A stretch of DNA of 52,257 bases, taken from positions 1-52,257 of the IMG/VR virus record IMGVR_UViG_3300042879_003234; one strand, 5' to 3'. How positions within the stretch are numbered: position 1 is the stretch's first letter; the number at the start of each line of letters is the position of its first letter. The position numbers were made by a program, and so were the translations under genes. This document shows, one piece after another, positions 6,551-33,443 of this stretch. The DNA is from a virus. Lineage: Duplodnaviria; Caudoviricetes. Below the pieces are notes generated by a model. It made no database searches. It saw only the letters and a program-made list of their open reading frames with translations, and was not told where the DNA came from.

Positions 6551-6630
6551 TGCCCGAAAGAGGACTTGAACCTCCACGCCTAAGCACATGATCCTAAGTC
6601 ATGCGTGTCTACCATTTCCACCATTCGGGC
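6551..6630 (-). tRNA. tRNA-Leu(UAG)
   Basis: GCCCGAA acceptor, GGTAGACAC D-arm, CATGA-CT-TAG-GA-TCATG anticodon arm, variable arm, GGTTCAAGTCC T-arm. Confidence 0.93.
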
Positions 6631-6633
6631 GGA

Positions 6634-6707
6634 AGCCCCAAGTCGGACTTGAACCGACGACCTACGGTTTACAAAACCGTTGCTCTATCCAGCTGAGCTA
6701 TCAGGGC
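6634..6707 (-). tRNA. tRNA-Thr(UGU)
   Basis: GCCCTGATAGCTCAG..., ACGGT-TT-TGT-AA-ACCGT, GTTCAAGTC. Confidence 0.93.
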
Positions 6708-6708
6708 A

Positions 6709-6978
6709 TTAATCACATGGAAGTATTTCTGGATTTTCCAACTCTACTTCAAACAGCATAGGATGGCACTGTTCATCAATCAAATAAAATGAAGATTTGT
6801 ATAGATCTTCTGGTTCCCATCTTTTTTCATGATCAGCTAAATGAATTAACTCTAAATCATATTTTGCGGTATCTGGGAGTTCATCAAAAGTAAATGGAAC
6901 ATTTTGTATGAAATACATAAGGACTATTTGACTACCTTCATTGTACCAGCAATACCTTGCATCGATACGATATTTCAT
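6709..6978 (-). CDS. conserved cyanophage hypothetical protein (MKYRIDARYCWY...)
   Basis: ATG 6978 follows late promoter TAAATA at 7002-7007; the upstream part of the track ORF is tRNA sequence. Confidence 0.75.
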   Translation of the reverse strand: MKYRIDARYCWYNEGSQIVLMYFIQNVPFTFDELPDTAKYDLELIHLADHEKRWEPEDLYKSSFYLIDEQCHPMLFEVELENPEILPCD

Positions 6979-7029
6979 AGGACTTATTCCTACTTTTGAC
7001 TTATTTAGAGAATTTTTTGAATCCTCTAA

Positions 7030-7112
7030 TAGGAGCGGGGGGACTTGAACCCCCACAGGCAATGCCCGACAGATTTTAAGTCTGGTGTGTCTACCGATTC
7101 CACCACGCTCCC
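7030..7112 (-). tRNA. tRNA-Leu(UAA)
   Basis: GGGAGCG acceptor, CCAGA-CT-TAA-AA-TCTG, long variable arm, GGTTCAAGTCC. Confidence 0.93.
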
Positions 7113-7188
7113 AAAAAGTAATAGGGCAAAAAATTTGCGGAATTTTTTTTCGCCCTAAAATGGAATTAAAAATCAATTTTCCCTGGAG

Positions 7189-7259
7189 AGCGGGCAACGG
7201 GGATCGAACCCGTGACTGGAGCTTGGAAGGCTCAGATGTTACCGCTACACCATGCCCGC
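7189..7259 (-). tRNA. tRNA-Gly(UCC)
   Basis: GCGGGCATGGTGTAGCGGTAACA..., GAGC-CT-TCC-AA-GCTC, GGTTCGATCC. Confidence 0.92.
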
Positions 7260-32435: not shown

Positions 32436-32566
32436 AATAACCTCCATGCACAAAGAACATCATAATAAAGGAGTTTTCGCTCATTTGTATCACCTCATAT
32501 ATTCTATCACTATCTAGGTAATTATGTTCAGATAATTACATTCTCGCAACAAAAATTTATACCTAT

Positions 32567-32592
32567 AAAAAAAGAGGGTCAACCCCTCTTTT
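32567..32592. terminator. bidirectional intrinsic terminator closing the riboswitch operon
   Basis: AAAAGAGGG-GTTGA-CCCTCTTTTTTT on the minus strand. Confidence 0.75.
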
Positions 32593-32602
32593 AATATTAA
32601 TT

Positions 32603-32686
32603 CTACCTGAATAGAATTTGAATATAAAGAGATATTACCACAATTGCAACTGCAGATCCTGCAGCAATTTGCAGTATTGCAAACAT
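32603..32686 (-). CDS. 27-aa single-TM microprotein
   Basis: MFAILQIAAGSAVAIVVISLYIQILFR; TGATG coupling and GGAG RBS. Confidence 0.6.
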   Translation of the reverse strand: MFAILQIAAGSAVAIVVISLYIQILFR

Positions 32687-32799
32687 CACTTCTTCTCCCC
32701 TACAGAACAATGACCTGCACTGCAGAGTGATGCTTGACGACGACGTTCTTCTCTTTGCTTTTGCTCTTTAATGAGTTGTAGGAAGTTTAACTTTTGCAT
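32686..32799 (-). CDS. 37-aa basic microprotein
   Basis: MQKLNFLQLIKEQKQREERRRQASLCSAGHCSVGEKK; TGATG coupling and AGGAGG RBS. Confidence 0.65.
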   Translation of the reverse strand: MQKLNFLQLIKEQKQREERRRQASLCSAGHCSVGEKK

Positions 32800-32927
32800 C
32801 ACTTCCCCTCCTTTACAAACTTAACACCACGATAAGTTTCGTTGTGCTGTTGGGGTTGTTGTTGTGCCTGTTCTTGGCGACGAACTTCGGTGTCGTATGG
32901 GACACCACGATAAACGACTTGAGACAT
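32799..32927 (-). CDS. DUF4278-family small protein
   Basis: MSQVVYRGVPYDT...ETYRGVKF carries two YRG motifs; AAGGAG RBS. Confidence 0.85.
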   Translation of the reverse strand: MSQVVYRGVPYDTEVRRQEQAQQQPQQHNETYRGVKFVKEGK

Positions 32928-32960
32928 TAGGTTTGCTCCTTTACTTGTTAAGGTGAGGTG

Positions 32961-33175
32961 GCGTTCCTTCAGTCGGCTTTTGCGTCTATTTTACACTCTT
33001 TGGGGGAGATTTGTTTTATTTCCCATATCAAGTCGTTTTTGGATTGATACGGAATATTAGTTTTATGGACTCTTCCAACCATCAACTGTGCTTGTAGGCA
33101 AGTTAAAATGAGTGCTTCCATAGATGAACGATCCGTTCCGAGTCGGCTTACTTCCGTCCCATATTGGGATGAACG
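32961..33175 (-). promoter_or_regulatory. tandem glnA-type (glutamine-I) riboswitch aptamers
   Basis: CGTTCATCCC-AATAT-GGGACGGAAGTAAGCCGACTCGGAACG, then CGTTCATCTAT...ATAGACGCAAAAGCCGACTGAAGGAACGC; matches the glnA motif CGUUCA..P2..CGGAAGUA..P3..GAAGGAACG. Confidence 0.8.
32969..33121 (-). CDS. 50-aa ORF nested in the second aptamer
   Basis: MEALILTCLQAQLMVGRVHKTNIPYQSKNDLIWEIKQISPKECKIDAKAD*; start and stop both lie in aptamer nucleotides. Confidence 0.6.
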   Translation of the reverse strand: MEALILTCLQAQLMVGRVHKTNIPYQSKNDLIWEIKQISPKECKIDAKAD

Positions 33176-33184
33176 TTAGAGGAT

Positions 33185-33214
33185 ATTATACCTCCATTCA
33201 ATCTATATAGTCAA
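33185..33214 (-). promoter_or_regulatory. sigma70-type promoter of the riboswitch operon
   Basis: TTGACT-18 nt-TATAAT; predicted TSS about 33178, just 5' of aptamer 1. Confidence 0.7.
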
Positions 33215-33239
33215 GCAAAAATGTATAATCGATTACTTA

Positions 33240-33443
33240 TCAATAGGGAAGAGACTTTAACCCATCCAGAACTTCCTGAAAGCGTTCGGAACGACTTCTA
33301 TGATGTGCTGCATTTTCCTCAAGCACACTCACAATATCGTCGAGAACAACATCAACAGACGCATCAGTATCAAAGTATTGTTGGATTGCTTCGGCAAGAT
33401 AACGCCGCCGACTCCATTCCATACTATAGGGTTTGTAAGTCAT
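33240..33443 (-). CDS. hypothetical protein (MTYKPYSMEW...)
   Basis: ORF track, internal ATG chosen. Confidence 0.65.
   Translation of the reverse strand: MTYKPYSMEWSRRRYLAEAIQQYFDTDASVDVVLDDIVSVLEENAAHHRSRSERFQEVLDGLKSLPY

Follow-up and report, generated by a model that had tools for sequence, protein, structure and literature searches.

In cyanobacteria, as set out in Klahn 2018 (PMC6212724), the glnA riboswitch upstream of gifB switches translation of IF17 on, and the proposal there is that bound glutamine frees the ribosome-binding site. Few phage copies of this RNA are on record, with only two examples in cyanophage genomes given by McCown 2017 (PMC5473149). A second point of comparison is the Mg2+-sensing leader of Salmonella mgtA, which contains mgtL, a short open reading frame (ORF) whose translation decides the RNA helices (PMC6460261). 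Here we describe a cassette on the minus strand of a 52,257-nucleotide (nt) stretch of viral DNA, positions 1 to 52,257 of IMG/VR record IMGVR_UViG_3300042879_003234, which we call the window. It comes from a T4-like cyanophage of fresh water (Kyanoviridae). Its nearest relatives in culture also belong to the freshwater Kyanoviridae, and DSL-LC02 is 80% identical across the cassette region. An initial annotation, made from the letters alone, had proposed that the cassette carries tandem glutamine aptamers, the second of them split by an intact ORF. Our preferred reading, to which we give a probability of about 0.5, is that the cassette would be a tandem type 1 glutamine riboswitch whose second aptamer is built around a protein gene, exerting reciprocal control over two small proteins; the element of control is argued by analogy with gifB. 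The central features are the following.

33130..33177, minus strand: glutamine (glnA, type 1) aptamer 1, ordinary short form (RF01739)
32962..33130, minus strand: glutamine aptamer 2, split (covariation, minimum-free-energy fold, short natural forms)
32969..33121, minus strand: nested ORF of 50 amino acids (aa) plus stop, encoding a member of a two-Cys helical-hairpin peptide family, phrog_504 (frame conservation, ratio of nonsynonymous to synonymous substitution rates, dN/dS)
32928..32961, minus strand: putative expression platform, with Shine-Dalgarno AAGGAG at 32941-32936 (sequence)
32799..32927, minus strand: DUF4278 (IF17-like) ORF of 42 aa with a YRG...YRG motif (PF14105, YRG motif)

Aptamer 1 scored 38.0 bits against the RF01739 covariance model (gathering score 35; model positions 1-53; E = 9.4e-05 for the whole window), bearing out its description as glnA-like, and 20.2 bits against RF01704 (glutamine-II), below the cut-off of 33. 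Three bases past it, a second CGTTCA (33130-33125) is followed by TCTAT (33124-33120); the 3′ part of aptamer 2 consists of ATAGA (32989-32985) and then ACGCAAAAGCCGACTGAAGGAACG, and ends at 32962. CGTTC (33130-33126) pairs with GAACG (32966-32962) as P1 and TCTAT with ATAGA as P2, which is extended by GCACTC (33115-33110) with GAGTGT (32998-32993), and the core and P3 are located at 32984-32968. The gene and the aptamer share letters at both ends, as had been proposed. The ATG (33121-33119) overlaps the P2 5′ strand, and the last codons, DAKAD with the stop codon TGA (32971-32969), are aptamer nucleotides: the final 21 bases of the ORF plus the next 7 (ATAGACGCAAAAGCCGACTGAAGGAACG) comprise the P2 3′ strand, the core, the small P3 and the P1 3′ strand. 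The core has a P3 (AG/CU, CCGA loop) and GAAGGAACG. Short natural forms that share the 3′ half of aptamer 2 scored 35.0-39.4 bits against RF01739, at or above the cut-off in 7 of 7 viral contigs, and in S-CREM1 the same 3′ half surrounds an ordinary 22-nt hairpin and scored 33.5 bits. We class aptamer 1 as a member of the known glnA class and aptamer 2 as a structural variant of it; RNAs of the aptamer 2 type would be predicted to bind glutamine.

Covariation in P2 was assessed in 92 distinct split aptamers of 167-224 nt each (deduplicated IMG/VR contigs, named phages and the window), gathered with a search pattern that fixed P1 and the 3′ letter of P2 pair 1 and left pairs 2-5 free. Pairs 3, 4 and 5 were standard in 91, 91 and 90 of the 92, respectively, with three to four pair types each; at pair 3, in-register MAFFT columns held CG 44 times, UA 41 times, UG 6 times and another combination once. 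In 500 shuffles the corresponding means were 71.5, 42.6 and 51.7 and the maxima 79, 56 and 63, and the observed values were never reached. Consistent with this, 99.8% of P2 cells were paired in the in-register columns, compared with 31-49% when the partner was slid by 1-3 columns. The contiguous helix has a mean length of 6.9 base pairs (bp), against 4.08 in shuffles, and often extends over the start codon, to as many as 14 bp. P2 covaries across enclosed peptides that are as little as 8-30% identical. An unconstrained minimum-free-energy (MFE) fold of the window leader recovered UCUAU/AUAGA together with the 6-bp GCACUC/GAGUGU extension, with a z-score of only -1.67 for the fold as a whole. 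At the level of comparative sequence analysis, these results show that the long-range P2 helix closing around the ORF covaries.

We then asked of the same alignments whether the enclosed frame behaves as a gene. The ORF had been described as intact, and it is open in 92 of 92 sequences despite the spread of aptamer lengths. A terminal stop is the only one in 89 (S-SRM01, which lacks the TGA, reads on for 5 codons, and two sequences stop 18 nt earlier), and the other two frames hold at least two stops in nearly all of the 92. For the interior codons of 30 sequences from the window's subfamily, the median dN/dS was 0.20, with 300 of 301 pairs below 1. Synonymous sites are near saturation (proportion of synonymous differences, pS, 0.5-1.0; nonsynonymous, pN, 0.08-0.36), and codon-position entropies of 0.79, 0.40 and 1.19 at positions 1, 2 and 3 place most of the variation at the third. 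In an 87-sequence protein alignment, C8 and C43 are invariant at a mean column identity of 35%. The window peptide matches phrog_504, a family without an assigned function, at E = 0.001 (19.7 bits), as do 78 of the 87 aligned relatives (best E = 5.2e-25), and a profile search returned 873 protein clusters, none carrying a Pfam domain. AlphaFold2 predicts a confident two-helix hairpin (predicted local distance difference test score, pLDDT, 86.7). A Foldseek search of that model against the PDB gave no match (best E = 4.3), the ESM Atlas gave no usable match, and Pfam gave no family for the nested ORF or for the 37-aa and 27-aa ORFs farther along the cassette. Peptides that stop early lack the DAKAD tail, a residue string that is dictated by the RNA. 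Collectively, the comparative data indicate that the nested ORF is a real protein-coding gene under purifying selection. Some JGI records label relatives of about 50 aa 'indole-3-glycerol phosphate synthase' or 'maleate cis-trans isomerase'; given a protein of 50 residues, these names look like annotation artefacts.

Scanning IMG/VR with the 24-nt 3′ half of aptamer 2 returned at least 120 viral contigs. Among the 120 matches listed, 87 have CGTTCA followed within 12 nt by an ATG, together with an ORF; 28 are short aptamers (41-72 nt) and 5 are cut by the contig end. The nested stop is the aptamer's own TGA or TAA, 7 nt before the GGAACG end, in 85 of the 87 listed ORF-bearing contigs, and lies 18 nt earlier in the other two. 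Split aptamers are found in the cultured phages DSL-LC02, DSL-LC03, S-SRM01, P-SSM2, P-SSM4, P-RSM4 and ACG-2014g; DSL-LC02, S-SRM01, DSL-LC03 and P-SSM2 have an ORF of 49-55 codons at exactly the window's position, and in P-SSM4, P-RSM4 and many contigs both tandem aptamers are split by ORFs. The tandem layout with an intact ORF in the second aptamer, as first proposed, is strongly supported: it recurs in relatives, P2 covaries, and homologous loops do not break the frame in the way that the initial annotation had named as grounds for refutation. When relatives were ascertained by protein instead, all 80 loci closely related to the window peptide (40 distinct sequences) had CGTTCA directly before the ATG, with a strict 3′ half in 77, a P3-loop variant in 2 and a decayed P1 strand in 1. 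The last, L241, retains the nested ORF and the 5′ half and has lost the GGAACG of the P1 3′ strand, a loss seen in no other of these loci. A tblastn search added three distant homologues (ACG-2014g, P-RSM4 and AG-345-L05), which also have aptamer halves on both sides and CGTTCA directly before the ATG (3 of 3), and some of the halves around distant homologues are of a variant type that the DNA search pattern could not have found.

First aptamers are interrupted as well. A scan with the 3′ half of the aptamer 1 type gave 99 distinct sequences, 45 of which contain a two-Cys ORF of 62-69 aa (for example, L006 394-629 in P-SSM4 and L252 160-387 in P-RSM4). Many of these ORFs begin with a signal-peptide-like N terminus (MTKALLLLAWVPLLS...), and their stop is often a UAA within the conserved AAGUAAG of the core; in L092, a peptide of the aptamer 1 type sits within a frame of the aptamer 2 type. 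A scan of genome contigs gave three matches, two in Prochlorococcus single-cell or metagenome-assembled genome (MAG) contigs and one in another MAG, which we read as phage DNA and not as host copies. The window stretch itself was found in lake-water metagenomes, and RNA libraries contain only small shares of it. Among RNA-library contigs of relatives (85-93% identity, aligned at a similarity of 85%), which may include DNA, indicate presence and bridging only and neither transcription nor a transcript start, and whose uncovered parts carry no meaning, one of 365 nt spans 32775-33139, covering the end of aptamer 1, split aptamer 2 and the DUF4278 ORF, and others skip 32987-33122 (with 8 other letters between in one) and belong to short-form relatives. 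These contigs show that split and short forms both exist in nature, and the split-aptamer module appears to be widespread in marine and freshwater cyanomyophages, often twice in tandem. In one IMG/VR contig, L114, aptamer 2 is 72 nt long, and a duplicated AT-rich and nearly palindromic segment without an ORF takes the place of P2; an ORF may have been lost or gained here, with this intermediate form as what was left behind.

The ORF downstream of aptamer 2 had been assigned to DUF4278. Its match to PF14105 (E = 1.9e-4, 22.2 bits, residues 5-36 of 42) falls below the gathering cut-off of 25.3; its YRG...YRG motif recurs in the ORFs that stand behind the aptamers of relatives. Behind split aptamers a YRG (DUF4278-like) ORF is present in 88 of 92 cases and behind short ones in 21 of 22, with cut contigs accounting for most of the exceptions, and a Shine-Dalgarno core precedes 107 of 109 DUF4278 ORFs. 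Platform sequences are identical in type between the short and the split forms.

The arrangement of these parts suggests how the two genes could be controlled. In the 92 split aptamers the nested AUG lies 3-6 nt past the P1 5′ strand; in 88 the contiguous P2 helix takes in its A, and a Shine-Dalgarno core stands upstream in one. Given this geometry and general ribosome footprints, a 30S ribosomal subunit on the nested AUG would need the P1 and P2 5′ strands to be single-stranded, and a ribosome at the last six codons would unwind P2, the binding core, P3 and P1. Because initiation would need P1 and P2 open and elongation would unwind the aptamer, folding of aptamer 2 and translation of the nested gene should be mutually exclusive, in agreement with the reasoning of the initial annotation. 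By analogy with gifB, high glutamine would close the aptamer, hiding the nested start and allowing translation of DUF4278, and at low glutamine the nested peptide would be made, with translating ribosomes keeping the aptamer open. Glutamine would in this way toggle between the nested peptide and DUF4278, and a single sensor would exert reciprocal control over two small proteins. Somewhat short of an even chance, in our estimate, is the full form of this proposal, in which the folded sensor has the inner protein off and the DUF4278 protein, resembling an inhibitor of glutamine synthetase, on, and in which inner translation feeds back on folding.

Several observations weigh against the reciprocal switch or against parts of the evidence for it. 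P1 (CGUUC/GAACG) is invariant in 92 of 92 sequences by construction of the search and carries no covariation information. The shuffle controls for P2 ignore relatedness, and IMG/VR contigs are redundant; the count of distinct pair types is the sturdier evidence for this helix. The joining region of aptamer 2, CGCAAAAG, lacks 2 nt relative to the consensus CGGAAGUA and has a G changed to C. A cmscan search of 32550-33300 against Rfam found only aptamer 1, with no match to aptamer 2 even at E ≤ 10; the RF01739 model cannot span so long an insert (152 nt). The evidence for aptamer 2 is comparative, in the split layout of 87 of the 120 listed viral contigs, the covarying long-range helix, the conserved frame and the short natural forms with the same 3′ half that reach the RF01739 cut-off. 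No anti-Shine-Dalgarno pairing was detected in the window's expression platform. There, the segment after P1 pairs with the Shine-Dalgarno sequence at -3.8 kcal/mol, whereas shuffles average -4.08 and do equally well in 54 of 100 cases, and a duplex of the Shine-Dalgarno sequence with the 14 nt after P1 is significant (at most 5 of 100 shuffles as good) in only 10 of 35 pattern-caught platforms, the window not among them. A clear 7-bp anti-Shine-Dalgarno is limited to the CUCUUUA/UAAGGAG clade (25 of the 35 platforms). Constrained folding gave a Shine-Dalgarno accessibility of about 0.33 whether the leader was left unconstrained, the aptamer was enforced, a ribosome was placed at the stop or a 30S subunit was placed at the start. 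Finally, work by Ren in 2015 is reported to have found that P2 forms in vitro without ligand, and the start codon could then be hidden with or without glutamine; a ribosome that halts 7 nt short of the P1 end could, instead, open the platform and thereby couple both ORFs.

This last point leads to an alternative that we consider unlikely, yet the most credible of the rivals: the nested ORF would be translated first, co-transcriptionally, and would gate assembly of aptamer 2, and the terminating ribosome would open the platform, moving DUF4278 in the same direction as the nested peptide and not reciprocally. The stop position shared by 85 of the 87 listed ORF-bearing contigs fits such coupling, as does the distance of 42 nt from the window's stop to the DUF4278 AUG, close enough for a ribosome at termination to sit over P1 and the beginning of the platform. 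The lack of ligand-dependent Shine-Dalgarno masking in the window models points the same way, and the TGATG overlaps of the downstream ORFs are typical of coupling. However, ORF-less short aptamers carry the same platform and DUF4278 gene, and therefore control of DUF4278 does not need the ORF; many ORFs of the aptamer 1 type stop before or in the P2 3′ strand (-25 to -37), so termination inside the core is not universal; and DUF4278 has a strong Shine-Dalgarno core of its own in 107 of 109 cases. Doubtful to a slightly greater degree is the view that the P2 loop tolerates any insert and that a small phage gene lodged there, expressed without regulatory linkage. Hairpin loops of structured RNAs, such as those of group I introns, are known landing sites for ORFs, and related phages carry both short and ORF-bearing forms. 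Such a passenger would not explain why the AUG lies within a few bases of the P1 5′ strand in 92 of 92 cases of the aptamer 2 type and 45 of 45 of the aptamer 1 type, without an internal spacer and with a Shine-Dalgarno core in only 1 of 92, or why P2 often continues over the AUG (up to 14 bp) and the end of the ORF invariably falls at or within the 3′ half. The aptamer and ORF also appear to have been duplicated as a whole unit, as in L092 with its peptide of one type in the frame of the other.

Two further explanations deny a function to one of the two overlapping elements. If the insertion had inactivated aptamer 2, its halves would be relics and aptamer 1 alone would sense glutamine, a history to which we assign little probability. 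The missing covariance-model match for aptamer 2 and the lost P1 3′ strand of L241 speak for such decay, but a relic predicts drift, and drift is seen in only 1 of 80 close relatives; the 3′ half is nearly invariant, and P2 covaries through three to four pair types across peptides down to 8-30% identity. Moreover, P-SSM4, P-RSM4 and many contigs have both aptamers split, and decay would leave those phages without an intact sensor. Conversely, the insert of about 130 nt could be a structured extension of P2 and its ORF fortuitous. The MFE fold does pair much of the insert, yet its overall z-score is only -1.67, and this view, to which we attach a negligible chance, is already contradicted by the saturated pS (0.5-1.0) against a pN of 0.08-0.36, the dN/dS of 0.20 with third positions varying most, a frame open in 92 of 92 sequences across lengths of 167-224 nt with no frame-breaking indels seen, two invariant Cys residues and a confident AlphaFold2 model. 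Leader-peptide attenuation of the mgtL or trpL type was considered separately and rejected: Gln accounts for 4 of the 50 residues of the window peptide, the ORFs are 49-69 aa long, dN/dS is 0.20 and the Cys residues are invariant.

The remaining features of the locus frame the riboswitch and its two principal genes. Every element of the cassette lies at, or a few bases from, the position first assigned to it.

33185..33214, minus strand: sigma-70-like promoter match, TTGACT (33214-33209), 18-base spacer and TATAAT (33190-33185), 11 of 12 consensus positions
33177..33196, minus strand: inverted repeat TGGAGG / CCTCTA with the -10 box as its loop (covarying arms in relatives)
32686..32799, minus strand: 37-aa ORF (MQKLNFLQLIKEQKQ...), start overlapping the DUF4278 stop (TGATG)
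32603..32686, minus strand: 27-aa hydrophobic ORF (MFAILQIAAGSAV...), start overlapping the preceding stop (TGATG)
32570..32592, minus strand: terminator-like G+C-rich hairpin followed by a T run (9-pair stem in the scan)

The promoter that had been noted just before aptamer 1 is present as a match to the sigma-70 consensus, marking a putative start site, and relatives have a -35/-10-like arrangement at the matching position. One doubt about this assignment is that the -10 box forms the loop of a covarying inverted repeat. A repeat of at least 5 bp surrounds the -10-like box in 138 of 144 distinct related upstream regions, compared with 42 of 144 shuffled sequences. Its loop boxes include TATAAT, AGTATT, AATATA and GCTAAC, its arms covary (TAGGGG/CCCCTA, AGGTC/GACCT, TGTGTT/AACACA and GTGGATAT/ATGTCCAC) and its 3′ arm adjoins aptamer 1. 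The repeat could be a feature of the DNA itself, or else an RNA hairpin of a longer transcript, and transcription would then begin farther upstream than the promoter match suggests.

The order of DUF4278, the 37-aa ORF, the 27-aa ORF and a terminator was located on the minus strand as proposed. For the 37-aa ORF, tblastn gave 44 rows, 42 of them at E ≤ 0.002, placing relatives in about 40 loci. Its motif (LNxLQLIKEQ...) is fused to the YRG protein at the C terminus in L026, L028 and L084 and at the N terminus in L067 and L086, and the unit looks, from these fusions, like a mobile module of IF17-like proteins. The 27-aa ORF has relatives in 4 loci at 70-85% identity, and 5 weaker ones share LLSxYIQ(F/W)L. 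The terminator scan listed the hairpin on the plus strand only; on the minus strand, T's follow a stem of 6-9 bp. Farther along the minus strand lie speD (34373-34047), thyX (32007-31288) and phoH (31004-30252), typical auxiliary genes of cyanomyoviruses. Four tRNA genes cluster at 6551-7259 of the window, also on the minus strand (Rfam, 56-66 bits). In marine phage loci, a manA RNA (RF01745) lies a few hundred bases upstream of the cassette, at L006 119-304 (184 bits) and L056 1071-1268 (175 bits).

If the reciprocal switch is correct, the cassette would be the first example of a riboswitch whose aptamer incorporates a conserved protein gene as an integral component, and a compact two-output switch that links translation directly to ligand sensing. 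It would also connect an abundant phage family, phrog_504 with its 873 clusters, with nitrogen status while Synechococcus and Prochlorococcus are being infected, a model testable in the cultured phages P-SSM2, P-SSM4 and S-SRM01. Split aptamers escape Rfam-style annotation; for one type they make up at least 87 of the 120 listed contigs, and for the other at least 45 of 99 distinct sequences. Because covariance-model annotation is blind to the split form, the use of riboswitches by phages would be undercounted, and the missed split forms may explain why so few phage examples have been recorded.

ORFs in the peripheral loops of group I introns, such as T4 td with I-TevI, encode mobile endonucleases and have their own ribosome-binding sites. 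Like the cassette described here, that system loops a protein gene out of a functional structured RNA helix in a T4-like phage, and folding and translation interfere with each other. Unlike it, our host RNA would be a ligand sensor and not a ribozyme, and we saw no mobility signature. The mgtL leader of Salmonella (PMC6460261) likewise places a short ORF inside a metabolite- or ion-sensing leader RNA; with its 17 codons, mgtL makes a leader peptide, sensing works through ribosomes that stall at proline codons, and the product is not thought to act. By contrast, the nested ORF belongs to a conserved family of 49-69 aa under purifying selection, shows no evident enrichment in glutamine codons (4 of 50 in the window) and lies in an aptamer hairpin loop, whereas mgtL lies between alternative stems. 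With these two as partial precedents, the novelty claimed by the initial annotation for a gene in an aptamer loop is consistent with literature searches, which found no published description of a protein gene inside a riboswitch aptamer. The glnA section of Weinberg 2010 and the passages covered of Klahn 2018, McCown 2017 and the S-CREM1 and Melnitz papers do not describe one, and inserts could be mentioned in Weinberg Additional File 1 or Klahn Table S1.

The closest relative is the type 1 glnA riboswitch upstream of gifB and DUF4278, with which the cassette shares P1, P3 and GAAGGAACG and, outside the joining region of aptamer 2, probably the core (Weinberg 2010, PMC2864571; Klahn 2018, PMC6212724). 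In the same accounts, cyanobacterial glnA/gifB riboswitches also have tandem aptamers and a downstream DUF4278 (IF17-like) gene with a Shine-Dalgarno sequence, and the short phage forms join the class by reaching the Rfam cut-off. The split form differs from known glnA aptamers in that P2 is a long-range helix closing a protein-coding loop of 130-190 nt, with the start codon in P2 and the stop codon in the core, and in that the joining region of the aptamer 2 type is 2 nt shorter. The downstream-peptide motif, or glutamine-II (RF01704), is a glutamine sensor of marine picocyanobacteria that is likewise tied to very short conserved ORFs and to DUF4278. There, however, the peptide gene lies downstream of the aptamer, whereas here it lies inside.

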